A stretch of DNA of 64,000 bases, taken from contig JALTZZ010000011.1 of assembly GCA_027051165.1 (NCBI GenBank), positions 5,556 through 69,555 of the forward strand, written 5' to 3'. The notes beneath the pieces are model-generated. The model did not search any database. It was not told the DNA's origin and worked only from the letters and a program-made list of their open reading frames with translations. A program made the translations under genes and the position numbers. Of the stretch, positions 6,531 through 55,769 are shown in pieces; position 1 is the first letter of the stretch, and each line of letters begins with the position of its first letter. The DNA comes from an archaeon (GTDB taxonomy: Archaea; Hydrothermarchaeota; Hydrothermarchaeia; JALTZZ01).

Positions 6531-6556
6531 CTACATCACCACAAAAATAAAGAGAA

Positions 6557-12557: not shown

Positions 12558-12558
12558 A

Positions 12559-12999: not shown

Positions 13000-13259
13000 A
13001 TAAATAGCTATAAAGATTTAACTATTAAAAGAATATAGTAAAGCGAACTACTTTTAGTGAATGTGGGAGCTTTCGTGGAATTTGACCCATTTACAGTGCA
13101 ACACCTTACAATGCCTTTGCTCTTGCTCACTGGACGACGACAAACCACCCTTAAGGTTGTTAAAACAGAGCTTAAACTCCGCTATAGCTAAACTATCATA
13201 TTTGCCAGCGTTAACGTTAGGCGGAGATTTTCACCAAGCTCTTTCTTTCGCAAAGAGTC

Positions 13260-14270: not shown

Positions 14271-15328
14271 ACAGCAATCACCCTTCTATTTTGAAGAAAC
14301 ATAGAAACATTTACAAGGCTTAAAAGTATGGGAACTTCAAGCAGCGGTCCTATAACAGTTGCAAAGGCTTGCATGCTGTTTATACCAAACATTCCTATAG
14401 CCACAGCAATTGCAAGCTCAAAGTCGTTGCTTGCCGCAGAGAATGCTAAGGCTGTCGCCTTTTCATGATCCGTCCTTATTATATTTGTTGCAACGAAATA
14501 AGTTATAAACCACATGATGAAGAAATAAGCAGTTAGAGGAACAGCAATTCTAAAAACATGGTATGGAAGCTCTACGATATTCCCACCTTTTAAAGAAAAC
14601 ATTATGAATATTGTGTAAAGTAACGCTACAGGTGTTATAATACTTATCCTTCTTGAAAATTCATTCTCATACCAAAAATCTCCTTTTTTTGATCTAAGAA
14701 TTTTTCTTGTTAAGAATCCAGCAATAAATGGTATTCCAAGGAATATAAAAACTGTTTTTGCAACCTCGTATATTGAGATATCAATGTAAACACTTCTAAA
14801 TATTTCAAGCTTGCTTGGAATAACGTTTAGGAAAATATAGATGTAGAAACTGTATGTTAAGATTTGAAATATGGCATTTAAGGCTACGAGACCAACTGCA
14901 AGCTCTCTATCTCCTCTTGCAAGGTCGTTCCACACAATTACCATAGCTATACATCTTGCAAGCCCAACCATGATTACACCCATAGCATATTCAGGATAAT
15001 CCCTTAGAAGCAAAGCTGCAAGGAAAAACATTAAAAAAGGACCAAATATCCAGTTTTGGAACATTGAAAATAAGAGAATCTTCTTGTTAAATAAAACGCT
15101 TCCTATTTTCTCATATTTAACCTTTGCAAGTGGAGGATACATCATAAGTATTAAACCGAGAGCTATGGGCAGTGAAGTTGTTCCTATGCTTAAAGAGCTT
15201 AGGAATTTTGAAAAGCTGGGAAAAGAATATCCAACAAATATTCCTAAAGCCATTGCACTAAAAATTTCAAGAGTGAGATACTTTTCAAACAATCTTAGTT
15301 TTGACAAAATTCTCCACCTCTCTTTCAA
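14267..15328 (-). CDS. ACR3-family arsenite efflux transporter (bile acid:Na+ symporter superfamily)
   Basis: 353 aa, about 10 TM, VIGPLLEVPILL segment typical of ACR3; adjacent to ArsR/ArsD-like genes. Confidence 0.55.
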   Translation of the reverse strand: MKERWRILSKLRLFEKYLTLEIFSAMALGIFVGYSFPSFSKFLSSLSIGTTSLPIALGLILMMYPPLAKVKYEKIGSVLFNKKILLFSMFQNWIFGPFLMFFLAALLLRDYPEYAMGVIMVGLARCIAMVIVWNDLARGDRELAVGLVALNAIFQILTYSFYIYIFLNVIPSKLEIFRSVYIDISIYEVAKTVFIFLGIPFIAGFLTRKILRSKKGDFWYENEFSRRISIITPVALLYTIFIMFSLKGGNIVELPYHVFRIAVPLTAYFFIMWFITYFVATNIIRTDHEKATALAFSAASNDFELAIAVAIGMFGINSMQAFATVIGPLLEVPILLSLVNVSMFLQNRRVIAV

Positions 15329-15584
15329 CAGCCTTTAAAACTTGATCGTATGTAGAAAATCCTTCTAAAATGATTTTATCGTTTAAAACAACGGTATTTA
15401 CCATTGTTACACCTAAGTCGAAGGCTCTTTTTGTGTTTACCTGCATTATAAACCAATCAACCTCAACGTTATACTTTTCCTCTATATACTTGCAAATTTT
15501 TTCAAGGCTTTTTCTTAAAAGCTCGTAGCTGCAAGAGCAAGAGGCAGGTTCAACGAAAACCTCTAAATAAACTCTTTTATCCAT
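15285..15584 (-). CDS. ArsD-like arsenic metallochaperone homolog
   Basis: VFVEPASCSCSYELL resembles the ArsD N-terminus FDPAMCCSTGVCG (vicinal cysteines in a thioredoxin-like fold). Confidence 0.45.
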   Translation of the reverse strand: MDKRVYLEVFVEPASCSCSYELLRKSLEKICKYIEEKYNVEVDWFIMQVNTKRAFDLGVTMVNTVVLNDKIILEGFSTYDQVLKAVEREVENFVKTKIV

Positions 15585-15829
15585 TTTTCTACTTCCTCCT
15601 CCCTTGGAACCCTGCCGCTTGTGACAACCTTTTCGTTTATAACAATTCCAGGTGTCATCATAACTCCATATTTTGCTATTTCGCTTATATCTTTTACCAT
15701 CTCAATTTTTGCATTTAATTTAAGCTTATTAACAACCTTCTCAACAATCTTCTTTGTCATGTTGCACTTTGGACAGCCTGTGCCAAGAACCTTTATCACG
15801 ATCATGTTTATACTTGAAATTTTTATCAA
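15563..15829 (-). CDS. Thioredoxin-fold redox-active disulfide protein (CPKC)
   Basis: GTGCPKCN active site; 88 aa. Confidence 0.6.
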   Translation of the reverse strand: MIKISSINMIVIKVLGTGCPKCNMTKKIVEKVVNKLKLNAKIEMVKDISEIAKYGVMMTPGIVINEKVVTSGRVPREEEVEKWIKEFI

Positions 15830-15859
15830 CTGAAATTTTTTTCAAATGTTATTTTTTTA

Positions 15860-16192
15860 ATGCTTTATGTGGAGTGCAGATTGATAGTGTTAGATGTTGA
15901 TGAAGAGGTGTTTGAAGAGAAGTGCAAAATTGTTAAGCTCTTAGCTAATCCTATAAGGCTAAAAATGGCTTATATAATGTCAAAAAGAGAAGTATGTAAC
16001 TGCGAGCTTGAAAAGCTTTTTAAAGTTGATCCAACGCTCATATCTCACCATTTAAAAAGATTTAAAGAAGCTGGTGTTTTAAAAGAGAGAAGAGAAGGTA
16101 AATGGAGAAAGTATAGAATAGATGATGAAAAAGTTAAAAAAATAATCGAAGTTTTATTTGAAGAAAATACTTCAGGAAGATTTAAACTATAA
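15860..16192 (+). CDS. arsR: ArsR/SmtB-family metalloid-responsive repressor
   Basis: EVCNCEL resembles the As(III)-binding ELCVCDL motif, followed by HTH LISHHLKRFKEAGVL. Confidence 0.7.
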   Translation: MLYVECRLIVLDVDEEVFEEKCKIVKLLANPIRLKMAYIMSKREVCNCELEKLFKVDPTLISHHLKRFKEAGVLKERREGKWRKYRIDDEKVKKIIEVLFEENTSGRFKL

Positions 16193-16202
16193 ACAACCAA
16201 CA

Positions 16203-16958
16203 TTACTTTGACGAAATGGAGACCAAAATTCCACTTACAGAATGAACTTGAACATCTTTAAATCCTACTTTCTCAAGTATCTCTCTGAATTCATCTTTTG
16301 TCATCCCAGGATGTTCCTTGAAACCCATTATCTCTACAAAGTATTTTTCGGCCCATATATTATCTGTTCTTTCAATTTCTAAGGCAACAAGAGTCCCGCC
16401 CTTCCTTAGAGCTTTTTTAAGTCGTGAAAGATAATAGATTGTGCTTGTCTCTTTCCGTTCCATTATAGTACCCACTCCTATCATAGAAATTATCTTGTCG
16501 TAAAAATTTTGCTTCAGGTTTTTTAGATCAAACTGGTAAGTTACATTAGCATCTTTCAACCATTCTTTTGTCAGTTTTGCATCTAAGGTGCAGAGGATCT
16601 TTTCACCCTTTTTGATACTAATATATCTATTTATCACATTAATGAAACGCTTTATGTAAGCGCTCCAATCACAGCAAGTAAGTTTTGTCCAGCTGGAGAG
16701 TAGCCGGCTAAGTTCCTGCACACCTTTCGGTGTTATCTTGTAAATCTTTTTCTTAGCAGCTTCCGTTCTAACGATCTCGTGGAATATAAGTCCTTTCCTC
16801 TCTAAGGAGTGAAGTGTTGGATATATGGTTCCTGGACTCTTTATATTAAGTTTTTTCATGAGTTCTACACCGCACATAGGATTTTCTCTTAAAAGAAGCA
16901 TAATTTTTGCCTGCAAACTTCCCTTGATTTCTGTATCAGCAAATATCATATCGATCAC
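16203..16958 (-). CDS. wHTH (PadR/ArsR-like) fused to a small SAM-methyltransferase-like domain
   Basis: N-terminal GVELMKKLNIKSPGTIYPTLHSLERKGLI; C-terminal MIGVGT...GGTLVALEIE Rossmann-like. Confidence 0.4.
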   Translation of the reverse strand: MIDMIFADTEIKGSLQAKIMLLLRENPMCGVELMKKLNIKSPGTIYPTLHSLERKGLIFHEIVRTEAAKKKIYKITPKGVQELSRLLSSWTKLTCCDWSAYIKRFINVINRYISIKKGEKILCTLDAKLTKEWLKDANVTYQFDLKNLKQNFYDKIISMIGVGTIMERKETSTIYYLSRLKKALRKGGTLVALEIERTDNIWAEKYFVEIMGFKEHPGMTKDEFREILEKVGFKDVQVHSVSGILVSISSK

Positions 16959-17076
16959 CGATAAATTGGGTAAATTTTATATAGCATTTTATCGACAATA
17001 ACGATATCGGTAGTATCGATAATATTACGTTCAGAAAGAACGAGAAGCCAAGTAGCAAACAAAACAGGTGTAAACG

Positions 17077-17430
17077 ATGGAAGAGTTTCATTGTAACTGT
17101 GCATCTTGTGGTAGATTACCTGAGCAGAAAAAAGGAGTACTTAACCTATGGGTAGAGTCTAAAGATGGCATGCTATGCGAGAATTGCTGGAAAAGAGGGA
17201 TTGATATGTTGAAAGCTTCGGCTATACCGGTGAAAAGAAAATATGAGGTGAAGGAAGCTTTCTGTTGCTTCTGTGTGCTCTGCGGCAGAGCACCTCCCGA
17301 TCCAAAGGTTAAGATATGGGTCGAAACAGAGTTCGGTTGTCTTTGTGAGATCTGCATGAAAAGAATAATGAGAAAAGGTATTGAACGGGAGATAAAGAAA
17401 ATGTTAGGGGGTGCTGAAAATGGTTGTTAA
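17077..17430 (+). CDS. Tandemly duplicated C4 zinc-ribbon protein
   Basis: Two repeats CxxCG(R)xP...W(V)E(T/S)xxGxLCExC... Confidence 0.5.
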   Translation: MEEFHCNCASCGRLPEQKKGVLNLWVESKDGMLCENCWKRGIDMLKASAIPVKRKYEVKEAFCCFCVLCGRAPPDPKVKIWVETEFGCLCEICMKRIMRKGIEREIKKMLGGAENGC

Positions 17431-17701
17431 GGTGCAGATCTTTGTAACCCCAACCTGTCCAAGTTGCGAACCTGTTTTTGAGGAAACTTTCAGAGTGGTT
17501 GAAGAGGTCAGAAGAAAATTAGATATAGAAATTGATGTGGAAAAGATTGATGTAACTAAGAAAGAAAACTTGAAGCTGGCTCTAAAGTATGGGGTTAAAT
17601 CCGTGCCTACAATTGTAGTGTGTGGAAAGGAAGTAATAAGAGGTGTTCCAAATAAAGACACCCTTATAAAGATTATTAGAAAATGTTCAGGTTTTGTGTA
17701 A
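17420..17701 (+). CDS. Glutaredoxin/thioredoxin-like small redox protein (CPSC)
   Basis: VTPTCPSCEP active site; GGGGGTG RBS 7 nt upstream of the ATG at 17420. Confidence 0.65.
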   Translation: MVVKVQIFVTPTCPSCEPVFEETFRVVEEVRRKLDIEIDVEKIDVTKKENLKLALKYGVKSVPTIVVCGKEVIRGVPNKDTLIKIIRKCSGFV

Positions 17702-17840
17702 ATTTTTTTATTGGTTGAAATTTTTCAGATAAGCAAAAAATTGCTTTTTATTTAGAATAAATTAATAAACTAACAGATAACCCTCCTGCATCACCCATTT
17801 AGGGTTGCTATAAAATTTACAAGAGTTCCACCAAAGTTTT

Positions 17841-26984: not shown

Positions 26985-28259
26985 ATGAACGGTATTGGTA
27001 GGTTCAAGCGAGAGCTTACTTCATTGCTGATAACAATGCTTATAGTGTTCCTGTTGATTTCCTCAGCACCGGCGGGAGCTGTAAACCTCAGAGTAACAAT
27101 TCCCAGCACGGTAGAACAAGGAAAATCGCTTGATTTTAATTTAGAAATAGAAATTGCAGCAAATGAAAGAATAAAAATCTCCAATATAACATTTGTTCTA
27201 AACTGTGGTGGAAACGTTTACAATTATACAGTTGATGCTGGTGGTAACTATATAGCTGGCGATGCAGGAATCTTCAGCGTTAATAAAATTGTTGCAGCTC
27301 CACAAGCTACTTATGGCTACGGTTACCTTATCGGATATGGCTATATCTATGGATACGGCTACGGCTACGTGAATTATGGTTATGGCTACGGCTATGGAGC
27401 ACCGTTCACATCATATCTAAACTACAGTGTATCTATAAATACAAGTTCTCTTCCGGTGGGCTCCTGCAATATAGAAATATTTGTGTGGACGGATGGAAAA
27501 GCTTTTTATACTCAAAAGAGCTTTGAAGTGAAAAAGCCAGCAGTTGTAGCACCGCCGGTAGGAGAAATTACACCCGGATCTATAGCAGTAGACAACACCG
27601 TTGATATAGGTATAACATATATACCGAAGGGTGTGGAGGAAGAACTTGCAATACCTGAGGAAAGCACACTATATAGATATATAGAGAAGATAACTTTGAT
27701 TGCGGAGAAATCTTTAGCAGGATTTATAATAAAAGTGAAGCTAATTGAAGAACCGCCAAAAGAGATACCAAAGATAGAGAATGCATACAGATTCTTTGAA
27801 ATAACCTCACCAATAAAAGAAGGATTTAAAGCCAAAATTAAATTCAAAGTAGAAAAGAAGTGGATAGAAGAAAATGATATTGACAAGAACAAAGTTTATA
27901 TGTATAGATACAGAGAAGCATGGGAAAAGCTCGATACGAGGAAAATTGATGAAGATGACGGGTATGTCTATTACGAAGCAGTTACTACAGGATTCAGCTA
28001 CTATGCAATAGCTGGAGAGAAGGTTGTTGCTAAGCCGCCAGAGATTAAGCCACCGGAAGTTAAGCCACCTAAACCGCCAGAAGTCAAGCCTCCGAAACCA
28101 CCGGAAGTTAAGCCACCTAAACCGCCAGAGGAGGTTAAACCACCCGCACCTACACCAGTTCCACCAAAGCCAACATGGGTTAAGTATGCAGTGATAGCAA
28201 TAATAATCGTTGCAATAATAGCAATAATAGCAGTGCTTTATCTTAGAAAGAAAGAGTAA
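26985..28259 (+). CDS. Secreted cell-surface protein with Gly-Tyr repeat and PEVKPPKP tandem repeats, C-terminal TM anchor and basic tail
   Basis: Signal peptide; GYGYLIGYGYIYGYGYGYVNYGYGYGYG; (PEVKPPKP)x4; IAIIIVAIIAIIAVLYLRKKE. Confidence 0.6.
   Translation: MNGIGRFKRELTSLLITMLIVFLLISSAPAGAVNLRVTIPSTVEQGKSLDFNLEIEIAANERIKISNITFVLNCGGNVYNYTVDAGGNYIAGDAGIFSVNKIVAAPQATYGYGYLIGYGYIYGYGYGYVNYGYGYGYGAPFTSYLNYSVSINTSSLPVGSCNIEIFVWTDGKAFYTQKSFEVKKPAVVAPPVGEITPGSIAVDNTVDIGITYIPKGVEEELAIPEESTLYRYIEKITLIAEKSLAGFIIKVKLIEEPPKEIPKIENAYRFFEITSPIKEGFKAKIKFKVEKKWIEENDIDKNKVYMYRYREAWEKLDTRKIDEDDGYVYYEAVTTGFSYYAIAGEKVVAKPPEIKPPEVKPPKPPEVKPPKPPEVKPPKPPEEVKPPAPTPVPPKPTWVKYAVIAIIIVAIIAIIAVLYLRKKE
28039..28140 (+). 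repeat. 24-nt tandem repeats encoding PEVKPPKP
   Basis: Repeated gaagttaagccacctaaaccgcca-like units visible in the DNA. Confidence 0.6.
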
Positions 28260-43982: not shown

Positions 43983-45056
43983 TTGAAGGCTTTTCCCAAC
44001 GTTATTTCAGAGATCTCAGAGACTTCCGCTGTGCCAACTAATTCTACGAAAATTAACATTCAGGGGTCAAAATTGAATGAAGCAGTAGAAGAGCTTAATA
44101 AAATGGTAAAGTTTAGTTTAAACGGAAAATACTTCTATACTACTAAGGGAAGCAGACTTTTAAGGATTTTACCAATAATAAGGAAGAGAAAAGTATTTAC
44201 CACGAGAGACATAGCCAAAGAGCTTGGAGAAGATGTAAGGAGAATATCAGACGTCTTAACATTATTATACAAGAGAGGAGCAATTGAGAGAACACCTGTA
44301 ATATCCTTAGACAGGAACGTAAGGGAAAGAATTTACTACCTGAAAGGCTATGAATACTTAGTTCCAGAGTATTTACTAAACAAATTAGATCCAGATGACA
44401 GGAAGTTTATTGAAGAGCTTATTTTTTCAAAGACTTTGAAGAGTAGCATAAGGCTAGAAAAAGAAGGATTCAGAAACTTCAAAGTCTTAAACAACTTTGT
44501 AAAAGTAGGCTTAGTAAAGAAGAAGACTATACATCTTTGGCACGAAAACGATAGATCCCTAGTAAACGTATTCTATTCACCAAGGCTAAAAGAAAAAGAA
44601 ATTGAGAGACTTATAGAGAAAGAAAAGGAAATACTAAGGGAATACGTTAAAAATGCTGTAAGGAACGGTAGAACACTTGAAAAAGAGGTAGAAGAGTTAG
44701 CATGGAAAATAACCTTTAAGCCTGTTGACGTAAAGAGAAACCAAAGGATAAAGCTTAGAAATGGCATTGAAGTAGAGTTCGATGTTATAGCTATTTTTAA
44801 GCCATTCATTAAAGATAAACCAATAGGCTACTGCTATGGCAAGTGTTTAGTTGTAGCGTTTAGCTGCAAGGAGCTCGCAAGCGGTAACTCAGTTCTCGAG
44901 ATAGTAGCGAATGCAAGGGACATATTCCCTAATGCTATAGTTGTCTTGGTTGCAGAGAATATAACAGAAAGCGTTCTAAGAGAAGCAGAAAAGAGGGAAA
45001 TATTACTTATAGCAAGTAAAAAGCTCAAAGAGTTAAGAGAATTAGCAAAGGACTAA
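43983..45056 (+). CDS. Element protein: winged-helix N-region plus C-terminal restriction-endonuclease-like region
   Basis: KEVFTTRDIAKELGEDVRRISDVLTLLYKRGAIERT wHTH-like; C-terminal DVIAIFKP...CLVVAFSCKE. True start may be M41 (44103). Confidence 0.4.
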   Translation: MKAFPNVISEISETSAVPTNSTKINIQGSKLNEAVEELNKMVKFSLNGKYFYTTKGSRLLRILPIIRKRKVFTTRDIAKELGEDVRRISDVLTLLYKRGAIERTPVISLDRNVRERIYYLKGYEYLVPEYLLNKLDPDDRKFIEELIFSKTLKSSIRLEKEGFRNFKVLNNFVKVGLVKKKTIHLWHENDRSLVNVFYSPRLKEKEIERLIEKEKEILREYVKNAVRNGRTLEKEVEELAWKITFKPVDVKRNQRIKLRNGIEVEFDVIAIFKPFIKDKPIGYCYGKCLVVAFSCKELASGNSVLEIVANARDIFPNAIVVLVAENITESVLREAEKREILLIASKKLKELRELAKD

Positions 45057-45080
45057 CTAACAACGATTTTCCATAGTTCC

Positions 45081-46475
45081 ATGGATAAAGAAGAAAAAAT
45101 AAAAGTATTGGAACTATTGTATCAATCTGGCATTGTCTCAATACCATATATTTTTTCAGTGCTATACGAGAAAAAAGATGCATGCTTAGACATTAGATTT
45201 AAGAGAAGAAAAATAAAACAGCTTCAGCGGTTTTTCAATGAGCTACATGACTTAGGAATCGTGAAAAAAGAGAGATATGGGAAGATTGTTTTTTACAAAT
45301 TAAACGAAGTCCGCAAGGACATAATTAGCTCGGTAATTAAGACAAAGTATTATTCAAAAAAATCAAAAAGGTCAAATTCGCTTCAAAAGCTTTTTTACAT
45401 CGTAAATTCGTTAGATAATAAGGAAAATTTAACGGGAAGAATGAAAAATATAGATATTTTAAGCAATACAATAATGCTAAATAACGATGTCAAAGCGAAA
45501 ATAATAAACGAATTTTTGTATTATATCATGAACATAAACAATAAAATCGTTATTTTCAAAAAAACGGAAGATAAACATGAAATAACAGAGGACGGCTCAG
45601 TTATTCTATATGACCAACCAGAGTATTTAGCATATGACTACAGGGTAAGGTTTAATTCGGCAAGATGGTTCAAAAATGTAAACAGATTTATAAGAAATGC
45701 ATTTGAGGAAGCAGGAAAGAGATTTAAATGGGCAGTTCACATAACTTTAACGGTAAATCCTAAGAAGTTTAACAACCACGTAGAAACAGTAATAAAAGCA
45801 AAAAAGCAATTAAACAGTTTTTTAACAACATTACGTTATCAGCAAAAGAAATTATATGAAAAGGGCTTAAGCAAACATAAAAAACTATATTATTTATGCT
45901 TTACAGAATTCGGGGAAGAAAACGGGTTAATACATTTTCATCTTATAGTTTTTGGAAGAAGAAGGATAGCAGATATTAAAAACTTAGAAGAAAAGAAATG
46001 GAAAATAGGCTATGTAAAAGCGAAACAATTAGTTTATAAGCGTGGAATTGGATGGACTTACCCCAAATGGAAGAACCGACCAAAAGATTTTGACAAAAGA
46101 GTTAAAAAAATTTTAGGCAACAAATATAGCTTTAAATTCCCAATTAAGCTATATTTCTACTTCTCATTACCTAAGATGAAGAAGAAGGATGATAAATTAG
46201 AGAAAGATGATTACGATGGCTTAGATCCTTACTTTTTATTAAATTATGCTTTATTGTTTACATACAATCTAAAGTATATCACTTACAGCAGAAACATTTT
46301 AAAGTGGAACGTAGAACCTTATGGAATAAGATATATTGACCTTCCAAATGATAACTATGAATTTTTTGCTGTATGCTATGAATGGGATCTAAAAACAACT
46401 TTTATTGGAAAGTATAGCTTATATGATTTGCTGTTTTATTCGGATGCTTTTATCATAAAATCGAAAGGAGGTTGA
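45081..46475 (+). CDS. rep: HUH-superfamily rolling-circle replication initiator (Rep)-like protein with N-terminal wHTH
   Basis: Motif I HITLTV, motif II (HUH) HFHLIVF and Tyr/Lys motif GYVKAKQLVYK, all in canonical order. Confidence 0.6.
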   Translation: MDKEEKIKVLELLYQSGIVSIPYIFSVLYEKKDACLDIRFKRRKIKQLQRFFNELHDLGIVKKERYGKIVFYKLNEVRKDIISSVIKTKYYSKKSKRSNSLQKLFYIVNSLDNKENLTGRMKNIDILSNTIMLNNDVKAKIINEFLYYIMNINNKIVIFKKTEDKHEITEDGSVILYDQPEYLAYDYRVRFNSARWFKNVNRFIRNAFEEAGKRFKWAVHITLTVNPKKFNNHVETVIKAKKQLNSFLTTLRYQQKKLYEKGLSKHKKLYYLCFTEFGEENGLIHFHLIVFGRRRIADIKNLEEKKWKIGYVKAKQLVYKRGIGWTYPKWKNRPKDFDKRVKKILGNKYSFKFPIKLYFYFSLPKMKKKDDKLEKDDYDGLDPYFLLNYALLFTYNLKYITYSRNILKWNVEPYGIRYIDLPNDNYEFFAVCYEWDLKTTFIGKYSLYDLLFYSDAFIIKSKGG

Positions 46476-47636: not shown

Positions 47637-48149
47637 ATGGGAAAGAAGATCACGATCACAGGCTCTAAGATATTTGATATAGGTTATAGATACTTCTTAG
47701 TAGAGCAAGCTTTAGGCTTTGGAATAGAAAGGTTTAGAGCTGTTAATTTAAGAAAAGAAAATAAATTATTAGTTTTTGTTGAAGGAAATGAAGAAGCTTT
47801 AAACGAGTTCGTAGAATTTGCTAAAAATAATTTTCCTAAGGATGCTCAAGTAGATAACATTGAAGTTGAAGACTACAAAGGCTATGTTCCAAAAGTAGAT
47901 CAGTTTTTGCTTTTGTTTAATGTCCAACAGTCAAGAAAGTTTATAGAAATTGGTAAAGAGGTAAGAGACGAAGTTAAACAAACAAGAGAAGAGCTTGGCA
48001 AAAAGATAGAAGATGTAGGGAAGAAGGTTGATAAAGTAGCAGACAAAATAGATGAGCTAAGAACAGATCTAAAGAGCTATATGGATGAAAGATTCAGAAT
48101 AATAGAAGAGGACATAAGAAAAATAAAAGCAAAATTAGGGATGATTTAA
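47637..48149 (+). CDS. Acylphosphatase-like N-domain plus coiled-coil protein
   Basis: ITGSKIFDIGYRYFLVEQALGFGIERFRAVNL...LLVFVEG resembles the acylphosphatase VxGxVQGVxFR...G..G.V.N...G.V pattern. Confidence 0.35.
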   Translation: MGKKITITGSKIFDIGYRYFLVEQALGFGIERFRAVNLRKENKLLVFVEGNEEALNEFVEFAKNNFPKDAQVDNIEVEDYKGYVPKVDQFLLLFNVQQSRKFIEIGKEVRDEVKQTREELGKKIEDVGKKVDKVADKIDELRTDLKSYMDERFRIIEEDIRKIKAKLGMI

Positions 48150-48374
48150 ATGCAACAAAAGAAAACTAAACCAAAAAAGCAACAGAAAAGATTTTTCTCA
48201 TTTTTAGATGATCTTAAAGGGGAAGATGTAGAAGTAATAATGCATAGCGGCATGAAGTTTGAAGGCAAAATATTAGATGTAAGCGATTTTGAGCTAAAAT
48301 TTAAGCCTAAAGATAAAGAAGAAGTTTGGTATATACATAAAAGCCATATAGCAATTTTAAAGCTTAAATTTTAG
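48150..48374 (+). CDS. Small basic protein (possible nucleic-acid binding)
   Basis: KKTKPKKQQKRF basic N-terminus followed by a beta-rich segment. Confidence 0.3.
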   Translation: MQQKKTKPKKQQKRFFSFLDDLKGEDVEVIMHSGMKFEGKILDVSDFELKFKPKDKEEVWYIHKSHIAILKLKF

Positions 48375-48507
48375 CTATACGTCTCAAAGTTCTTAGCTCG
48401 GTAACTAATTGTAAAATCAAAGCTGAAATATTTTCAGTATTATATTCCTTTTTTAGTTCTTCAAGCTTCTTCATAGCTTCATCGTTGAGATATACACTTA
48501 CGCCCAT
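48364..48507 (-). CDS. Ribbon-helix-helix (CopG-like) small DNA-binding protein (47 aa; not in ORF track)
   Basis: MGVSVYLNDEAMKKLEELKKEY..., an RHH beta-strand followed by a helix; divergent from the structural operon. Confidence 0.5.
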   Translation of the reverse strand: MGVSVYLNDEAMKKLEELKKEYNTENISALILQLVTELRTLRRIAKI

Positions 48508-48654
48508 AGTCGTTTATATATACGGCAATTGTATAAAAATCTTTCGTCATCTAAGATTATCTTAGAAAATCTTAGAAAGTCTAATATTATCTTTAAATTC
48601 CAAAAGAAAGGTATTTATAAGGTATTTTTCAGAAATTATGTTGGAGGTGATAGC

Positions 48655-49632
48655 ATGAAATTTAAACATATTTTATTAACTTTTGTCTTGGTTTTGGTAG
48701 CGATTTCAAGCGTTTCAGCAAGCATATATGACTTTGAGAATACCAACGAAATTCAGTTGTTCGAACAGCTAATGATAGACAGCAACAACACTATCTCCAC
48801 ATTAAATACCAGCTATGCAACTATAACCGTTACTAATGGCTTAGTAATGCTCAAAAGTTTGGACAATATACACATGCCGGCAATAGCAATACCCTATCAG
48901 CAGGGGCAAGTCTATGCCGTTGAAGGTAAAAACCTAAAAATCGGAGTTATAGCGAACAATACACTACAAGGAGCAATAGACATAATTGACAGAGGATATA
49001 TATACTTTGATAGTCAAACAGCAGCAGTATTAACCGATGGAGCTTTCAGCATAAAGGTATTTTCAACAACACCAATAGAGAAAGTTGTTATATACTCAAA
49101 AGATGGTTTAATAGATAAATTAGCCATTGATACACCAAAAACAGAGCTAAGCAGCGGTAGCCATCTATATCAATGGTCAGGAACTACAAGCGTAACAAAA
49201 AGAATAACACTAACTGCTGGAGCAAGATATAAATTCTATCTGGTGCAAAGCGGAGATACTGATGCTTTTCTGTTTAAACCAAGCAATCCAAATTATGGAA
49301 GTGCATCTGAATACCAAAGCTATCATTGGCTAGTTAATAATGCAGACTTTAAGCACTACATAGGAACAAAATACTACACAGCACCAGAAAGCGGAACATA
49401 TAAGCTCGTAATTAAGATTTTATCAGGAGACAGCTGGAGCTACACTATTGATTGCATATCAGGATGTAGCAGCAATACTCCACCTCCGGATAATAATCCA
49501 CCGCCAAGCCAAGATAATCCAGCAGGAATAGTAAAGAACATGGATGATAAAAAGAAAATGCTGCTAATTGGTATCGGAGCTTTTGCAGTAACGCTATTTA
49601 TAGTGTTCTTGGCTGGAGGGAGAAGAAAATGA
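48655..49632 (+). CDS. Secreted protein with signal peptide, Pro-rich stalk, C-terminal TM anchor and basic tail (spike/adhesin-like)
   Basis: GGAGGTGA RBS; MKFKHILLTFVLVLVAISSVSA signal peptide; PPPDNNPPPSQDNP; LLIGIGAFAVTLFIVFLAGGRRK. Confidence 0.6.
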   Translation: MKFKHILLTFVLVLVAISSVSASIYDFENTNEIQLFEQLMIDSNNTISTLNTSYATITVTNGLVMLKSLDNIHMPAIAIPYQQGQVYAVEGKNLKIGVIANNTLQGAIDIIDRGYIYFDSQTAAVLTDGAFSIKVFSTTPIEKVVIYSKDGLIDKLAIDTPKTELSSGSHLYQWSGTTSVTKRITLTAGARYKFYLVQSGDTDAFLFKPSNPNYGSASEYQSYHWLVNNADFKHYIGTKYYTAPESGTYKLVIKILSGDSWSYTIDCISGCSSNTPPPDNNPPPSQDNPAGIVKNMDDKKKMLLIGIGAFAVTLFIVFLAGGRRK

Positions 49633-50195
49633 TGCATATATTCATATTACTAATTTTATTGGCTATCCCTACTGCTGTTGCACAGGAATTACCCATACAG
49701 CAGTTTAATAATGAAATAGAAGCTTATCAACTGCAACAGGCACAGCTTGCACAGCTTGCAGCTCAATATGATCTAACCAAAGCCATAACAGTTTATAGCG
49801 GAGTATTGTTTAATGGATGGAAAAGCTATGGAACTATAGAGATCCCCAAGGATTGGAAAAAGGTCTACCTAATAATAATACCCACAGAAGCCCCAAGAGC
49901 TGATGTAAGAATATATGCAATGATTAATGGTCAGGAAGTATTAGCAAATGCTCCCTTAGGAGCAACAGTAAGCGTTGATATAACTGATGCTCTATCTTCT
50001 ACAAGAACAGCAAGCATAAATATATATGCTTCAGGATCAGTCAGAGCAAAAGTTCTCGTAGCTCCACCAAATCCAGCAGTAATGCAGGCTGAAGAGCTAA
50101 ACAGCAACATCAAAAATACAAAATATATACTAATAGGTTTAGCAGGCATAATTTTAGCAGCAATAGTTGTAACAGCAGGAAGAAAGAGGAGATAA
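49629..50195 (+). CDS. Secreted protein with signal peptide and C-terminal TM anchor plus basic tail
   Basis: ILLILLAIPTAVAQ signal; C-terminus YILIGLAGIILAAIVVTAGRKRR. Confidence 0.55.
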   Translation: MMHIFILLILLAIPTAVAQELPIQQFNNEIEAYQLQQAQLAQLAAQYDLTKAITVYSGVLFNGWKSYGTIEIPKDWKKVYLIIIPTEAPRADVRIYAMINGQEVLANAPLGATVSVDITDALSSTRTASINIYASGSVRAKVLVAPPNPAVMQAEELNSNIKNTKYILIGLAGIILAAIVVTAGRKRR

Positions 50196-50197
50196 AA

Positions 50198-50350
50198 ATG
50201 ATTGCCTTAATTTTTATTTTATTATTATTTCTAATGGCAGCAGTAACGGTAGTTGTCATAGATCCAATCAAGCTTGCAATAATAATGCTGTTTTTCCTTG
50301 GAGTATTTTGGGTATATCTTGCCCATGCCCATGGAGGGCAGAAAAAATGA
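50198..50350 (+). CDS. Small (50 aa) two-helix membrane protein (not in ORF track)
   Basis: MIALIFILLLFLMAAVTVVVIDPIKLAIIMLFFLGVFWVYLAHAHGGQKK; ATGA overlap with the next gene. Confidence 0.45.
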   Translation: MIALIFILLLFLMAAVTVVVIDPIKLAIIMLFFLGVFWVYLAHAHGGQKK

Positions 50351-50976
50351 AATTACTAATAATTCTACTGTTACTATTGCCAATAGTGTATGCTCAGGAT
50401 GTAGAAGAGATAGAACTTGGAAAACCACCAGAACTAAGTAGCACAGGCTACACAATAAAAAAGGGAGAATATGTTACCTGTTGGATAAAGATGCCAGATA
50501 ATCCATTAATAGGAGAAAAATATGGCGGAGCAGTAGGACTATATTCAACAAATCAGGACATCAGGATATACGCTGTTGCAAAGGGATTTATAAGACATAC
50601 ACCAAGGCTTGAAGTATATGAAAATTCTCAGCTAAAGACCCATGCAGAGTTCGAAGAAAATCAGTTTAACGAGGAATTTCAAGTGAGATTGGCATATTTA
50701 AACGATGGAACAATAAAAATAGGATACAGGTATGCAACAGTCACTGAATGGCAGATTTTGTATAGTGTTTTAGCAAAGTCTTCAATGTATTCTGTTAAAG
50801 GATTAAAAGCCTATAAATGCGAGAAAAGACAAATTGCACCACCAAGTCCACCAAGTAACGGAAACAATCCTTTTGATGACAGTGAACCTTTTGACAAATC
50901 AGATAACAAGAAATACCTACTTGCTGCAGGAGCTTTGATAATAATAGCATTAATACTGCTGGTGACAAGAAAATGA
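50347..50976 (+). CDS. Secreted protein with signal peptide, Pro/Ser-rich linker, C-terminal TM anchor and basic tail
   Basis: MKLLIILLLLLPIVYAQ; PPSPPSNGNNP; LLAAGALIIIALILLVTRK. Confidence 0.55.
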   Translation: MKLLIILLLLLPIVYAQDVEEIELGKPPELSSTGYTIKKGEYVTCWIKMPDNPLIGEKYGGAVGLYSTNQDIRIYAVAKGFIRHTPRLEVYENSQLKTHAEFEENQFNEEFQVRLAYLNDGTIKIGYRYATVTEWQILYSVLAKSSMYSVKGLKAYKCEKRQIAPPSPPSNGNNPFDDSEPFDKSDNKKYLLAAGALIIIALILLVTRK

Positions 50977-52073
50977 ACGAAGTTTTGTTTTATATTTTAT
51001 TTAGCATTCCATTTGGCTTAACTCTATATTTAACTTTAGTAAGACACATAAAAGCTCATGTTATTGACAATAGAGACCATGCAAGATTCTTTTTATATCC
51101 ATATCCTCCAAGAAGGATGCTTATTCTTCATAAGCTCGATGGAAAATTTAGCATATACTATGATGATCAAATAAAAGAAATAAAAGGAGATGAAAAAAGT
51201 GAAGTATCATGTAAAAATCATGATGAAGTAGATCATTTTGTTTTAGATGGAAATCTAAGCGATTACAGCTTAAAAGTAAGCATGTATGATGCAAGAGGAG
51301 CAAAAGGTTATGATAGTCCTTTCAGCTTGGCATGGCGATGGATCGTAGCAGCAAGCTTTACCGTATATATAAACTACATTGCAATGATAGAAGGCTGGTT
51401 CCCAAGAAATGGCGAACCCGACATGTTTTGGGCAATGCTTGGAACTATGGCTTTTTTCCTAAGTTTAATGTGGTTCCTAACGAACATTATTAGATTTCGA
51501 GATGAAACAATAGAATACATATATCTGCTCCCTAAATCAATAAATCAGGGGTTAACAGAATACGTTCATGCTCCGGAGCCTCTTAGCAACCTAAGCCTAC
51601 CAAACTTTCTCAAAAGACTCGGTAAAGAAATTAAGGTAGAGGTTCCAAATGAGCTTAAAGAAGTATTTGAAAATCTAAAAAAGGGAAAAAAGGACGTTTT
51701 AGTATCAGCATTAAGCCTTACCAAGTTTTATGAAGCTGAAGCTTGGAGAAAAGCACTAAGCCAAAGCTTAGAGGACATGATGAAGCTAAGAAAAGCTGGA
51801 GAAACAATTGCTCTCATAAAGATGAAGGGGCTTATATATAGACCTGTAATGGTCTATGTTGTCATCTTTATATTGGGCTTAATTATTGGCTACATATTTG
51901 GTAACATATTTTCAATTGGCTTTGAAGAACCAACGGAGCATGCAAGGAACTTAACTCAAGTTCCCATCATATCACAGATACCACAGAACATAACACTACC
52001 TCAGCCTCAGCTACCGGAGCTCCCAGAGGCTCCTCTTAAACCTGCTCCTCCACCACCTCCACCAACGAGGTGA
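50973..52073 (+). CDS. Polytopic membrane protein with Pro-rich C-terminal tail
   Basis: N-terminal TM, central TM pairs, C-terminal TM, PELPEAPLKPAPPPPPPTR. Confidence 0.45.
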   Translation: MNEVLFYILFSIPFGLTLYLTLVRHIKAHVIDNRDHARFFLYPYPPRRMLILHKLDGKFSIYYDDQIKEIKGDEKSEVSCKNHDEVDHFVLDGNLSDYSLKVSMYDARGAKGYDSPFSLAWRWIVAASFTVYINYIAMIEGWFPRNGEPDMFWAMLGTMAFFLSLMWFLTNIIRFRDETIEYIYLLPKSINQGLTEYVHAPEPLSNLSLPNFLKRLGKEIKVEVPNELKEVFENLKKGKKDVLVSALSLTKFYEAEAWRKALSQSLEDMMKLRKAGETIALIKMKGLIYRPVMVYVVIFILGLIIGYIFGNIFSIGFEEPTEHARNLTQVPIISQIPQNITLPQPQLPELPEAPLKPAPPPPPPTR

Positions 52074-52423
52074 GACCCATGATTGAGCTTATAGCAAGCA
52101 TAATTCTCATTGTTTTAATGGTTCAGGTCTTCATTATAATATATTTAAAGACAAAGAGCTTGTTTAAGGCATGGATATTTGCTTTAATAATAGGCAAAGC
52201 AATAGTTGTTGTCTTTTGGGCATTTGGTATTGAACACTCATTAGGAACTTTATACATATACAACAAAAGGAGTAATGAAGTAATATCCTTTGAGATTACT
52301 TCAAGTCATGTCATATTTTTAGCTTTTTTAAGCTCATTGATTATAAGTTTGTTTTGGTATGACATAATAAGATATGCTCCACCTTCATTGAGAAAAAGAA
52401 TAAAAGATAAGAGGGGGATATAA
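52070..52423 (+). CDS. Small membrane protein (3-4 TM)
   Basis: 117 aa hydrophobic. Confidence 0.4.
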   Translation: MRPMIELIASIILIVLMVQVFIIIYLKTKSLFKAWIFALIIGKAIVVVFWAFGIEHSLGTLYIYNKRSNEVISFEITSSHVIFLAFLSSLIISLFWYDIIRYAPPSLRKRIKDKRGI

Positions 52424-52735
52424 ATGGAGTTCTACGATGCACCAAAAATGATAGAATTCGGAATAAAGCTTGGAAAAGACAGCGTAGATAGAATTTTAGA
52501 AGTTCTCAGAAAAGGAGATCTAAAGGAGATATTAGCATACATAGATGAAGAAGCTGCAAGAGGATTATTTTTTGCTTTTGCTGATTTGGAAATTCACAAG
52601 AATATTGAGTATATTGCAAGTAGCAGCAAGAAACCTGAATATCTTGAAGTAGAGTTCCTAAGAGCATTTTCTCTAAGCGAGAAGATAATAAAATTCTCTA
52701 CACCTAAGTTTGATCTTCAGGTGGAAAGAGGATGA
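52424..52735 (+). CDS. Hypothetical soluble protein of the element
   Basis: 103 aa; start/stop overlap with the following NTPase gene. Confidence 0.35.
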   Translation: MEFYDAPKMIEFGIKLGKDSVDRILEVLRKGDLKEILAYIDEEAARGLFFAFADLEIHKNIEYIASSSKKPEYLEVEFLRAFSLSEKIIKFSTPKFDLQVERG

Positions 52736-53601
52736 ACATACTAAACGTAATTGCTGGAGAAAAGAGAGTTGATGGAGTAGAACTTAGAACAATAACTATA
52801 ATAGGAACTATGGGAAGCGGTAAAACAACATTAGCGAGACATTTAGCTTCAAGGGGCTACAGAGAGTTAACACAAAGAGGAGTTGATGACAGCAGAATAT
52901 TAATAGTTCACTTTTATAGATCAAGCATAACCGCTATTCTCAATTATTTAACCGAAAATTTTGATTTAGAAGATATAGAATTTCTCTATCTTATAAATGA
53001 CGATGCTGCTTATATGAACATGAGCAGAAGAGCAATGAATGATATAAACATAAATGATGCAAGGCAGTATATTGTTATTAGGCATAAGCTTGCGGAGAAT
53101 AATTTTAAAGGCGTTTTGATTGCTGTTCACTTAACACAACTTTATTATTTGCTGGACAAAGTGTTAAGGGATTCTCAAGTTTTAATGTTTAAAAGCATGA
53201 GTAGGGATAATAATGAGAGGAAATATTTAGCTACACTTTTAGGTAGGCATTATTTTAGAGTTCTAAGAAAGATAAGCGATGATATAGCGTATGGGAACAA
53301 AGATAGGTATATAGAAGCATTAAGCAGAGCAGTTGCAGTTGTTGGTTCAAGAAGACTTATTTACGAGTTTAAAAAAGAAGATCCACCAAGAAATATCTAT
53401 TATGAAGTATCTCCAGAGGAAATAAATATAGAACCTAAGATTACTTTGAACACTTTAAGGGATTTTGTAAGAGGTTGTGGGATACAGGCTAAAGATACAA
53501 AAATTTACAGGCTATATAAGCTGATTAATGCTTATTTAAATGGCTTGGATGTAGATATGCTACTTCAGGAGATCCAAGAGGAGGTGGAAGCTCATGCTTA
53601 A
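52732..53601 (+). CDS. P-loop NTPase with N-terminal Walker A
   Basis: IIGTMGSGKTTLARHL; 289 aa; last-but-one gene of the operon. Confidence 0.6.
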   Translation: MNILNVIAGEKRVDGVELRTITIIGTMGSGKTTLARHLASRGYRELTQRGVDDSRILIVHFYRSSITAILNYLTENFDLEDIEFLYLINDDAAYMNMSRRAMNDININDARQYIVIRHKLAENNFKGVLIAVHLTQLYYLLDKVLRDSQVLMFKSMSRDNNERKYLATLLGRHYFRVLRKISDDIAYGNKDRYIEALSRAVAVVGSRRLIYEFKKEDPPRNIYYEVSPEEINIEPKITLNTLRDFVRGCGIQAKDTKIYRLYKLINAYLNGLDVDMLLQEIQEEVEAHA

Positions 53602-54349
53602 GTATGTAGTTATATGTATTATTCTCTGTTCCTTATTCCCTGTTGCAGCATCTGAACAAGAGCAGCTAATAAAAATGATGGTGGACAAAGGCTGGGACAA
53701 AGGAGTAGCAATTGTTACTGCTGATGGATACTATGGAACAGGCTGGTGGATTGATAGGAATACCATGGTAACAGCAGCACATGTAGTTGAATATAAGTAT
53801 AAGACTGTTAGAGTAATTCATGGATATTTCGAAACTACAGGAAGAGTTGTCTCAATAGACCAAAAAAGAGACATAGCAATAATAAAAACCCAAAGCATGC
53901 CTAAGGATGCCTATATTTTTGTGATTGATAAAAGAGTTGAAAAAACGGAAACCGTATATGCAATAGGCTACCCTTATGAACTTATGCAGCTTGAGAGAGA
54001 CGTTTACAGCCTAAGTGCAAATCCAAGAATAGCAAAGGGAACTATTAGCTGGATATCTCCAGATATTGGCATTGCTGAGATAACAGTTAGCGTGGATGCA
54101 GGTAACAGCGGTGGTCCGGTAGTAAATGAAAATGGTGAGGTAGTAGGCTTGGTAACTTTTGCTTTAAAAGGTAGGGCTGCTACCCTTTATTTTATAACAT
54201 TAAGCAAGGAGCTTGAGGGAAATGTTAACTATAGAGTAGGATTAGGATTGTCTCATGAACAAAGAGAAATGCTTAAATCTATCGCATTAGGGATATTTAT
54301 CTCTGTATTCACTACATTCTTAGTGCTTTATGGGTTCAGAAAGAGGTAA
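53594..54349 (+). CDS. Membrane-anchored trypsin-like (S1/HtrA-like) serine protease
   Basis: Signal peptide; TAAHVV (His), DIAIIK (Asp), GNSGGPVV (Ser); C-terminal TM plus FRKR. Confidence 0.65.
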   Translation: MLKYVVICIILCSLFPVAASEQEQLIKMMVDKGWDKGVAIVTADGYYGTGWWIDRNTMVTAAHVVEYKYKTVRVIHGYFETTGRVVSIDQKRDIAIIKTQSMPKDAYIFVIDKRVEKTETVYAIGYPYELMQLERDVYSLSANPRIAKGTISWISPDIGIAEITVSVDAGNSGGPVVNENGEVVGLVTFALKGRAATLYFITLSKELEGNVNYRVGLGLSHEQREMLKSIALGIFISVFTTFLVLYGFRKR

Positions 54350-54816
54350 TTTTTCAATTAAAAAATTATAAAGGACCTTAGCATTCTCTCTGGAGCTTTT
54401 AATAGTCCACTTTATACTACCCAAAATTTCTACAACACCTTTCTTCCTAACTATGCCTACTTCCTTAAATTTTATACCGTCTATCTGTCTTAAGTTCATA
54501 CTCAGCATGTTATCCTTTTTTAAAATCAATCCAGAACGTTTATAGCAAATAAGCCTTTTATTTGTAATAACTAATTCACTATATTTTTCATCATTTACCA
54601 CAAACTTCTTTAAATCAAACTTATATTGAATCTCCTCATTAGGCAATAAAAAATCTTGCAAACCTATAGTAAGATCACCATTAACCTTTATATATCAGTT
54701 ATGACAATATATAACACAAAAATGGGAACGGAGGTGGAAGACAACATGGAAACACCAACAACCACCTGTAAGGATAAGTATGTACTTTTCTTATATATAA
54801 AAGTTACGGTCGTTTA

Positions 54817-54902
54817 TGCGGGGGGAGGGATTTGAACCCTCGCAGGCTCTACGCCAACGGATCCTGAGCCCGTCCCCTTTGACCAGACTCGGGCACCCCC
54901 GC
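54817..54902 (-). tRNA. tRNA-Leu (anticodon CAG) with long variable arm
   Basis: Reverse complement GCGGGGGTGCCCGAGTCTGGTCAAAGGGGACGGGCTCAGGATCCGTTGGCGTAGAGCCTGCGAGGGTTCAAATCCCTCCCCCCGCA; anticodon loop CTCAGGA. Confidence 0.8.
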
Positions 54903-55769
54903 ATATTCAAGCAGAGCTTTACCAAATCCATAGCCGAAGTATGTGCTCGTTATTCCAAGTATCTCCTGAAGGAAAGTTTTTTCACGATAATATACAATCT
55001 CAGGTTTTTTTGTTATATTTGCAAGCTTTTTCGCAATCTCTATGGCATCCTCCTTGGTTCCGACCTCATCCACAAGTCCCACTTCCTTTGCCTGAAGTCC
55101 AGTATACAACCTACCTTCGGCAATCTTTCTTACATAGTCTTTGCTCAAGTTTCTGTTATCAGCCACCTCCTCGATAAACATATCGTATATTTGATAGCTT
55201 ATATTTTCGAGCATCTCTATTTCCTCCTGCGTTAGCGGTCTGTATCCGCTTCCCATGTCCTTATATTTCCCAGCCTTAATTACGGTTACATTTATTCCAA
55301 GCTTCTTTAAAAGTCCAGAATAATCGGTAAATATTGATATAACCCCTATACTACCGGTTAAGCTCCCCTTACTTGCAACTATATAGTCACATGCGCTTGC
55401 AATATAGTATGCACCGCTTGTGCCTATCTCGCCAATCCAAGCAACAACTGGCTTGTTTGACTTCTTTATAATGTTTGCTATCTCATCACTCGCCACCACG
55501 CTACCGCCGGGACTGTTTATTTCTATCAGTATTGCCTTAACACTGTTATCGGATAACGCCCTCTCAAAGAACCTTTTAAACTTCTCAGGTGTAGTTGCAC
55601 TCGTGCTAAAGAACCCCTCTTGTTCGTCGAGGGATATAACCCCTTTAACCTCTATTATTGCTATTTTTTCTCCACCAACCTTTTCCCTTGGAGAAATCAT
55701 ATATACAAATACTATTGAAATTATAAGAAGGCTGAATATCATGAGTAGAAATAAAAATATTAAACGCAT
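54849..55769 (-). CDS. sppA: Signal peptide peptidase SppA (S49 family)
   Basis: N-terminal TM; GSVVASDEI; catalytic Ser in SLTGSIGVIS and Lys in VIKAGKYKDMGSG. The last about 18 codons overlap the tRNA-Leu gene. Confidence 0.7.
   Translation of the reverse strand: MRLIFLFLLMIFSLLIISIVFVYMISPREKVGGEKIAIIEVKGVISLDEQEGFFSTSATTPEKFKRFFERALSDNSVKAILIEINSPGGSVVASDEIANIIKKSNKPVVAWIGEIGTSGAYYIASACDYIVASKGSLTGSIGVISIFTDYSGLLKKLGINVTVIKAGKYKDMGSGYRPLTQEEIEMLENISYQIYDMFIEEVADNRNLSKDYVRKIAEGRLYTGLQAKEVGLVDEVGTKEDAIEIAKKLANITKKPEIVYYREKTFLQEILGITSTYFGYGFGKALLEYAGVPESGQRGRAQDPLA

Follow-up and report, generated by a model that had tools for sequence, protein, structure and literature searches.

Candidate membrane-anchored envelope proteins of an AGV1/SSeV-like provirus in a Hydrothermarchaeota genome

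A 64,000-nucleotide stretch of an archaeal contig (JALTZZ010000011.1, positions 5,556 to 69,555; Hydrothermarchaeota), hereafter the window, carries an element of ~11 kb in which four consecutive genes encode proteins that we call p325, p188, p50 and p209. We consider it likely that p325, p188 and p209 are type-I anchored envelope or receptor-binding proteins of a provirus distantly related to the cultured viruses Aeropyrum globular virus 1 (AGV1) and Sulfolobus super-elliptical virus (SSeV), and that each is held in the membrane by a plain C-terminal helix. This reading draws on gene structure, topology signals, conservation, homology of the element's core to the two cultured viruses, and predicted folds. 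The original prediction, made by reading the DNA without database searches, had singled out the three as the best candidates for receptor-binding or envelope spike proteins, a choice supported by the homology of the core to AGV1 and SSeV and by the major virion protein of AGV1, which has the same architecture. The four genes are as follows.

48655-49632, plus strand: p325, 325 residues (open reading frame (ORF) list and gene calls of the source contig)
49629-50195, plus strand: p188, 188 residues (ORF list)
50198-50350, plus strand: p50, 50 residues (ORF list)
50347-50976, plus strand: p209, 209 residues (ORF list)

Successive genes in this run overlap by 4 nt or are separated by 2 nt, and the same spacing is found across the next five genes, so that they form one tight operon. 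We place the start of p325 at ATG 48655, which has a ribosome-binding site, GGAGGTGA, 4 nt upstream and is also the start in the source-contig gene calls; the program-made ORF list runs the gene further upstream, to a TTG.

In hydropathy scans, each of the three larger proteins opens with a hydrophobic signal peptide ending at an AXA-type site (p325 residues 1-23, VSA/S; p188 residues 1-18, AVA/Q; p209 residues 1-16, VYA/Q), has a single C-terminal hydrophobic segment (residues 299-323, 163-186 and 187-209, respectively, with the membrane helix placed at 299-321 in p325 and at about 166-184 in p188 and 190-207 in p209) and finishes in a basic tail (RRK, within GGRRK, in p325; RKRR in p188; RK in p209), with no internal hydrophobic segment. 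In the non-overlapping ORF set of the window, the combination of signal peptide, C-terminal helix and basic tail occurs in 4 of 15 element ORFs vs 1 of 64 host ORFs (Fisher p=0.004), and it is retained in the orthologues of p325, p188 and p209 in four other elements. The claim that three secreted proteins of a tripartite build stand in a row is thus confirmed by the ORFs, by hydropathy, by the enrichment and by the orthologues, as is the presence among them of a 50-residue, two-helix membrane protein. This is p50, located between p188 and p209; its single hydrophobic stretch (residues 1-46) is interrupted at VIDPIK and reads as two helices, its end is GGQKK, and it is kept at the same position in three related elements (L003, L006 and L008).

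A proline-rich stalk had been proposed for all three proteins and is found in two of them. In the 30 residues ahead of the helix, 7 are proline in p325 and 6 in p209, vs 2.6-4.5% proline over the remainder of the three proteins. The linkers are Pro/Ser/Asn overall, that of p325 (residues 270-298) being Pro/Asn/Asp and that of p209 (residues 163-187) Pro-rich. In p188 the count falls to 3/30 and the linker is just a short APPNP patch, of which PPN is invariant among p188 orthologues; the protein runs from its signal peptide through a short Gln-rich helix and a conserved beta-rich ectodomain to the PPN patch and the anchor.

BLASTP matches among p325, p188 and p209 are confined to the anchors, and profile-profile comparison with hhalign found no relation between their ectodomains. 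As judged from these comparisons, the three are non-paralogous, each a real conserved gene. Orthologues of p188 and p209 occur in four other elements at 33-45% identity (35-45% for p188 and its four orthologues). A full HMMER scan extended the p325 family to 16 proteins, a word-index search with p325 having returned no homologue besides itself. Every full-length member of this family combines a signal peptide with a Pro/Thr/Ser linker, a helix and a basic tail, and F-[IL]-F-x-P-S-N-P-x-Y-S is a motif common to them.

The operon continues with five further genes, which provide the link to cultured viruses.

50973-52073, plus strand: p366, a membrane protein whose three hydrophobic segments precede a poly-Pro C-terminal tail, of an eight-member family
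52070-52423, plus strand: p117, a small three-helix membrane protein with BLASTP matches in SSeV and AGV1
52424-52735, plus strand: p103, a soluble protein conserved in related elements, of a six-member family
52732-53601, plus strand: p289, a P-loop ATPase of the DnaA-like viral group, matching AGV1 gp32 and phrog_5484 (E 4.7e-6)
53594-54349, plus strand: p251, a trypsin-like serine protease (Pfam Trypsin_2, E 1.2e-19)

The best-conserved protein of the lineage, p366, matches SSeV gp33 (BLASTP 1e-43, tblastn 2e-35) and AGV1 gp07 (BLASTP 7e-9). By BLASTP, p117 matches SSeV gp2 (3e-10) and AGV1 gp11 (2e-3), and the protease p251 matches AGV1 gp04 (1e-28) and SSeV gp9 (2e-9). The ATPase p289 finds AGV1 in a tblastn search of phage and archaeal-virus genomes (4e-23) and gp32 of that virus by BLASTP (2e-29), and SSeV gp6, also a DnaA-like ATPase, matches phrog_5484, the family shared with p289, at 1.9e-24. 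The features of an AGV1/SSeV-like module that we found are therefore a p366-type protein, a p117-type protein, a P-loop ATPase and an anchored protease with an intact triad (His, Asp and Ser are invariant in 8/8 family members), preceded upstream of the core by anchored proteins and two-helix minis. Because the core is homologous to AGV1 and SSeV, the block is, on sequence grounds, the virion/morphogenesis module of a lineage that extends from viruses of crenarchaeal hyperthermophiles to the host of the window.

SSeV (MN539721), a plaque-forming, lytic virus used in bioRxiv 10.1101/778746, gives the best core match, and its genes are collinear with those of the window: two anchored proteins (gp29 and gp30), two-helix minis comparable to p50 (gp31 and gp32), gp33, gp2, gp6, gp9 (the anchored protease) and gp10 (another anchored protein). 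The proteins gp29, gp30, gp9 and gp10 are anchored like those of the window and carry IGLG, IGAG or LGLG at the start of the helix. SSeV differs from the window in being lytic, in its 15.4-kb genome and Sulfolobus host, and in anchored proteins that are larger (528, 346 and 338 residues) and unrelated in sequence.

AGV1, an unclassified virus, forms 60-nm spherical particles with a sole major virion protein, ORF1_309 (gp01), whose Edman N-terminal sequence begins within the ORF (bioRxiv 10.1101/2021.04.21.440749). We found that gp01 has the build of the window proteins, with a signal peptide ending in ASA, a C-terminal helix and the tail ARAR, and that downstream of it lie a 61-residue two-helix protein, another anchored protein and an anchored protease. 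AGV1 further resembles the window in its homologous ATPase, its trypsin-like anchored protease, its p366-like and p117-like proteins, and its run of anchored proteins and two-helix minis (gp01-gp04, gp08, gp09 and gp27), the minis gp02 and gp09 being comparable to p50. It is unlike the window in its crenarchaeal host, a G+C content of 56%, an 18-kb genome, an SSV-type integrase, the lack of a rolling-circle Rep, an ATPase gene on the opposite strand, and ectodomains without detectable similarity to those of p325, p188 and p209. An N-terminal motif that p209 and AGV1 gp03 seemed to share in a MAFFT alignment, E-x-x-D-T-G-Y-x-L-x-P, was set aside, as hhalign gave the pair just 5% probability.

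Two other families of archaeal viruses invite comparison. Pleolipoviridae (VP4/VP5, HRPV-type) are enveloped viruses of archaea with small particles, and their spike protein combines a signal peptide with a membrane anchor at the C-terminus; genes for membrane proteins and an NTPase are kept together in a single conserved block, whereas the genera have exchanged their replication genes (rolling-circle Rep or others). The window proteins would work in the same manner as these spikes. However, tblastn of the ATPase, p366, p325, p188 and p209 against phage and archaeal-virus genomes gave no pleolipovirus match (E<=1-10), and the best 50 PDB fold matches listed for p325 and for p209 are other kinds of protein, none of them carrying a description as a spike or envelope protein from an archaeal virus. 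For the Fuselloviridae, PHROG scans, which bear on the VP1-type two-helix capsid protein and the SSV core genes, were empty for p50, p366, p117, p103, SSeV gp31 and gp32, and AGV1 gp02, and p50 had no family match in Pfam or PHROG scans that would mark it as a fusellovirus-type capsid protein. The sole link to Fuselloviridae families is the DnaA-like ATPase, an SSV-type integrase being present in the relatives L006 and L008 and absent from the window.

Predicted folds separate p325 and p209 from ordinary enzymes. The AlphaFold 2 (AF2) model of p209 (predicted local distance difference test, pLDDT, 81; predicted TM-score 0.73; pLDDT >90 over residues 31-160) consists of one eleven-strand beta-sandwich (residues 31-162), the linker and the helix. 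In Foldseek, galectin carbohydrate-recognition domains account for all 50 of the 50 best PDB matches, with probability 1.0 and TM-scores of 0.4-0.55; with sequence identity of about 10% and a root-mean-square deviation of 5-6 Å, the relation is at the level of the fold alone. Galectin/ConA-like lectin domains serve viral attachment elsewhere, as in rotavirus VP8*. The p325 model (pLDDT 80) has beta-sandwiches at about residues 24-158 and 172-269, a disordered linker (273-298) and the helix. Its PDB matches are generic jelly-roll, carbohydrate-binding-module, cupin and Vip3 C-terminal folds only, with a TM-score of ~0.2, and its best BFVD match (E 5.5e-11) comes from an uncultured archaeal virus and is itself uncharacterised. 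The second sandwich scores 19.9 bits against Pfam PPC (PF04151), below the cut-off of 25.9, the L094 orthologue passes the threshold at 33.2 bits, and with the profile of the p325 family there is a hit at E 0.05 to the jelly-roll domain of 3afg, a Thermococcus subtilisin; these hits, weak for the window protein, suggest a PPC/jelly-roll-like second domain. The finding of solute-binding or enzyme ectodomains had been named as what would speak against a spike role, and the models of p325 and p209 are both lectin-type beta-sandwiches instead. For p188 we found no Pfam, NCBIfam or PHROG family; its profile gives a marginal match, over 44 residues, to ConA-like DUF1080 proteins (E 0.005).

A conserved Gly/aromatic loop, YGG(A/G)VG, was noticed in p209 at residues 57-68 (50515-50550); it reads YGGAVG here and WWSADDYYGGGVGV in L006 and L008, and its sequence is reminiscent of fusion loops.

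On these grounds we propose that p325, p188 and p209 would be exported through Sec and their signal peptides cleaved at the AXA sites. The C-terminal helix would then act as a stop-transfer anchor, with the R/K tail in the cytoplasm and later inside the virion, and the flexible Pro/Ser/Asn stalk would keep the beta-sandwich ectodomain off the membrane. A lipid envelope would be drawn from the host membrane, on which the three would become spikes or a surface coat; sortase-type processing would not be needed. As to individual roles, p325, the first gene of the operon and the one with two beta-sandwiches, may be the likeliest counterpart of the AGV1 major virion protein or the main spike, and the galectin-like p209 may be the likeliest glycan-binding adhesin. 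We would place p50, p366 and p117 among the internal membrane components, and the co-anchored protease p251, whose catalytic domain would face outside, may have the host surface layer or the envelope proteins as its target. In viral attachment proteins one usually sees a constant core combined with exposed domains that are hypervariable.

Two routes to the surface had been offered, an archaeosortase-like one and simple anchoring by the helix, with the remark that no PGF-type motif was present. That absence is confirmed: among Pfam and NCBIfam models, neither PGF-CTERM nor any other sorting domain matches p325, p188 or p209 at E<=1. The result is meaningful because Pfam PF18204 detects a true PGF-CTERM in a related element, in a 311-residue protein of L006 (22.8 bits, cut-off 18.8) whose homologues in L008 and L091 share the terminal QTPGFE motif. 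Substrates of archaeosortase A with a PGF-CTERM are like the window proteins in having a Pro/Thr-rich stalk, a membrane helix and a basic cluster, but the three lack PGF or any other signature motif and match no model. No archaeosortase was found among the five smaller of the ten multi-pass ORFs of the window, which comprise four transporters and one protein without a family match (the five larger, of 389-700 residues, were left out). The archaeosortase-like route is not supported and, of the two, simple membrane-helix anchoring fits.

In L006 (12275-13210), L008 (7708-8646) and L091 (12251-13168) the protein of ~310 residues that ends QTPGFE...RRK is encoded by the last gene, so that each of these elements carries one presumptive archaeosortase substrate beside plainly anchored proteins.

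The same C-terminus had also been claimed for the protease p251 and for a host surface protein, from which the element was thought to borrow its route.

26985-28259, plus strand: host surface protein with a signal peptide, a PEVKPP-repeat stalk, a helix and RKKE

The host protein does have the full pattern of PEVKPP linker, helix and RKKE, with 30% proline in its last 70 residues. In p251 the claim holds in part: the signal peptide, the C-terminal helix and the basic tail (FRKR) are present, but none of the 30 residues ahead of the helix is a proline. The notion of a route exploited from the host is not supported, since the likeness amounts to generic type-I topology and the viral-anchor profile described below misses the host protein. 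The host protein has a PGF-pre-PGF domain (TIGR04213, 3.5e-25); despite this domain, it ends in a plain helix and RKKE without the PGF motif.

The anchors have features that could be read differently, namely as a dedicated sorting signal, cleaved either by an enzyme of archaeosortase type from the host or by the membrane-anchored protease of the element, after which the helix would be lost and the protein re-attached or released. Across seven elements many anchors start with L-[IA]-G-x-G, often after K-Y or I-K-Y. This small-x-small motif at the outer end of the helix, scored as G-x-G over a fixed 12 residues at the start of the helix, occurs in 11/31 anchors vs 0/29 of their own signal peptides and 1/115 host helices; it is loose, and within our window p325 alone has it in strict form. 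When the 323 window ORFs are searched with a profile made solely of anchors from AGV1, L092 and L094, the anchors of p209 and p188 come first and second, with marginal E-values of 0.07-0.09. Anchors also co-vary within an element: the mean BLOSUM62 score per position is 1.32 for non-orthologous proteins of the same element (signal peptides 0.70), 0.95 for orthologous proteins of different elements (0.59) and 0.84 for unrelated pairs between elements (0.60), where the pairs are non-independent, L094 weighs heavily and the window alone shows a small effect (0.97 vs 0.81). Beyond this, 8/8 elements have a protease that bears this anchor and keeps its catalytic triad, and the AGV1 virion protein runs at 28.5 kDa, between the 30.1 kDa expected with the anchor and the 27.5 kDa expected without it, so C-terminal processing is possible there. 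We nevertheless hold a cleaved sorting signal to be highly unlikely, given the lack of a matching sorting-domain model, the looseness of the motif, the marginal profile scores, the lack of an archaeosortase among the ORFs scanned, and the fact that an outward-facing protease of trypsin fold is no known transpeptidase; the co-variation is explicable by gene conversion or amino-acid composition. What the anchor comparisons weakly suggest is that the anchors of each genome share descent or adapt to a partner, which, if it exists, is probably encoded by the element itself. A more specific idea, that the cassette K-Y-x-L-[IA]-G-x-G, helix and R/K tail is a virus-specific incorporation or sorting signal co-evolving with a partner from the same module, seems to us quite unlikely; the partner could be p251, which bears the same cassette, or the membrane proteins p366 and p117. 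If true, the cassette would be a virus-borne counterpart of the sortase/archaeosortase systems, loading varied ectodomains onto one envelope, and the virus lineage so defined would extend over both Thermoproteota and Hydrothermarchaeota, with no relative in IMG/VR scans.

Several points weigh against the envelope assignment itself. Signal peptides and helices were assigned by hydropathy and by eye, with no trained predictor, and the AF2 models come from thin alignments (11 sequences for p325, 7 for p209). Compared by hhalign with every anchored protein of AGV1 and SSeV, the ectodomains of p325, p188 and p209 show no credible relation (the best ectodomain pair is AGV1 gp01 with L092_301, at 30% probability), and as they have no detectable homology to AGV1 gp01, the link to that virion protein lies in architecture and gene position only. 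AGV1 is known from a preprint only, and we found no published description of SSeV virion proteins. This copy of the element has no integrase, and neither repeat finding (seed 12) nor a blastn-short comparison of the tRNA region with the window showed att repeats beyond chance 12-16-mers, so this copy may be immobile. No free circular form or excision product was seen, other contigs with the element showing the same integrated site, and no virions have been seen.

Some of these points would suit proteins displayed on the cell surface by a plasmid-like or defective element, where they would take no part in a virion and might instead be used to exclude superinfecting viruses, to adhere, to bring cells into contact for DNA transfer or to form vesicles. 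The rolling-circle Rep, with neither integrase nor att sites in this copy, would accord with that, as would the unseen free form, IMG/VR scans that were empty for the ATPase, the p366 family and Rep, and a DnaA-like ATPase, which points to replication and not to packaging. We think a purely cellular role unlikely, however: the same module is present in two cultured viruses that form particles, one of which, SSeV, makes plaques; the major virion protein of AGV1 is of this build; and the genes make up a single operon of late type, with a divergent RHH regulator. That unrelated membrane proteins with no common role have simply come to lie side by side is scarcely credible. Ectodomains without sequence similarity would be expected in that case, and a signal peptide with a C-terminal helix is a common build, but chance would have to account for the enrichment in the element, for a gene order conserved across phyla and for the operon coupling.

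The original prediction had placed p325, p188 and p209 on a mobile element, which agrees with a block of ~11 kb (about 43.9-54.8 kb), lying between a host oxidoreductase gene and a tRNA-Leu gene, that has its own Rep, RHH regulator, ATPase and protease. The surrounding sequence is a metagenome scaffold whose host is probably a member of Hydrothermarchaeota: its V-type ATPase A subunit shares 75% identity with the counterpart in a Candidatus Hydrothermarchaeota MAG, and further hits reach at most 68%. Its genes are, in order, a winged-helix protein, Rep, small proteins, the RHH regulator, p325-p188-p50-p209, p366, p117, p103, p289 and p251. The features outside the operon are:

45081-46475, plus strand: rolling-circle (HUH) replication initiator, Rep (Pfam PF23343, 2.3e-10; HFHLIVF motif in the translation)
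48364-48507, minus strand: RHH (CopG-type) regulator, 47 residues (Pfam RHH_1, 20.9 bits vs a cut-off of 20.5)
48508-48654, plus strand: putative promoter/operator of the envelope operon (from sequence reading and a repeat search)
54816-54903, minus strand: tRNA-Leu(CAG), the right edge of the element

The RHH gene is transcribed divergently from the envelope operon, and the region between them contains a palindrome, TCTAAGAT/ATCTTAGA, at 48550-48566, a 28-nt direct repeat at 48536 and 48566, and a duplicated TATA-like sequence, AAGGTATTTAT, at 48608-48629. Together, the regulator and the repeat-rich region (48364-48654) are probably a lysogeny/late-gene switch. As seen at 43983-46475 and 54816-54903, the element has a Rep where its relatives carry SSV-type or other tyrosine integrases and, though it abuts a tRNA gene, lacks an att duplication.

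Related elements were reached through five relatives of p289 (49-55% identity) and through the p325 family. Their contigs carry the same gene block, with a p325-like protein, further anchored proteins, a two-helix protein of ~52 residues, p366-, p117- and p103-like proteins, the ATPase and the anchored protease, and its order is conserved among elements from different phyla. Proteins with a signal peptide and an anchor number 3-5 in each of 7/7 related elements. In BLASTP clustering the families of p366 and the protease have eight members and that of p325 has seven; there are six members in each of the p117, p103 and ATPase families and five in those of p188 and p209. The integration and replication genes differ: L006, L008 and L091 have an integrase of SSV type, L092 has a different tyrosine integrase and the window has the Rep. 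No relative was found in IMG/VR with the ATPase alignment, the p366-family alignment or a single-protein Rep scan, nor in GTDB species genomes with the ATPase alignment, and because these scans were empty we regard the lineage as rare. A metagenome scan added a single new locus, L091. Nothing was returned by a search with a fused p188 and p209 alignment, and p325, p188 and p209 had no tblastn match in phage or archaeal-virus genomes. None of the contigs checked has terminal overlaps.

We regard the element as a new variant within a barely known virus lineage. In the literature we found no described virus of this lineage for Hydrothermarchaeota and no paper describing the lineage as a group, so that, if our reading is right, the phylum gains a virus, possibly its first. 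The element would link AGV1 and SSeV, barely studied viruses of marine and hot-spring hyperthermophiles with hosts in another phylum, to uncultured proviruses, one of them in this deep-sea vent archaeon, via one conserved envelope/morphogenesis block on which replication and integration genes are swapped, this copy having a rolling-circle Rep and other copies SSV-type or different integrases. It belongs to a lineage without a relative in IMG/VR scans using ATPase, Rep and p366-family queries, offers concrete attachment candidates in the galectin-like p209 and the PPC-like p325, and raises the question of how a shared anchor could bring unrelated ectodomains onto one envelope.

Further observations concern the relatives and single proteins of the element. 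SSeV (L095) is filed under Fuselloviridae at NCBI. Among its proteins scanned against PHROGs, gp6 alone matches a family, that of the DnaA-like ATPase, with no match for gp31, gp32, gp29, gp30, gp2 and gp10 and hence none to a capsid protein of fusellovirus type, and its core matches AGV1 and the proviruses described here; its filing may need review. The L008 orthologue of p325 (1250-2053) ends at 267 residues, ahead of the linker and anchor, and the near-identical L091 protein (5601-6662) has the full 353 residues; the short form may stem from a frameshift or from misassembly, or may be a natural variant that lacks the anchor. In p366 the order of stalk and helix is reversed, with the poly-Pro tail placed after the last membrane helix (PAPPPPPPTR; PPTPPLGG in orthologues), as also seen in L003, L006, L008, L092 and L094. 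The L003 element is flanked by AAA_15/AAA_21 ATPase genes (1457-4936) and by DUF2357/PDDEXK_7, Mrr_cat and resolvase genes (11987-17832), a setting that looks like a defence island. Finally, a 170-residue protein of the window element (47637-48149) pairs an acylphosphatase-like N-terminal domain (PF00708, 2.8e-8) with a coiled-coil C-terminus, which is unusual in a small virus.

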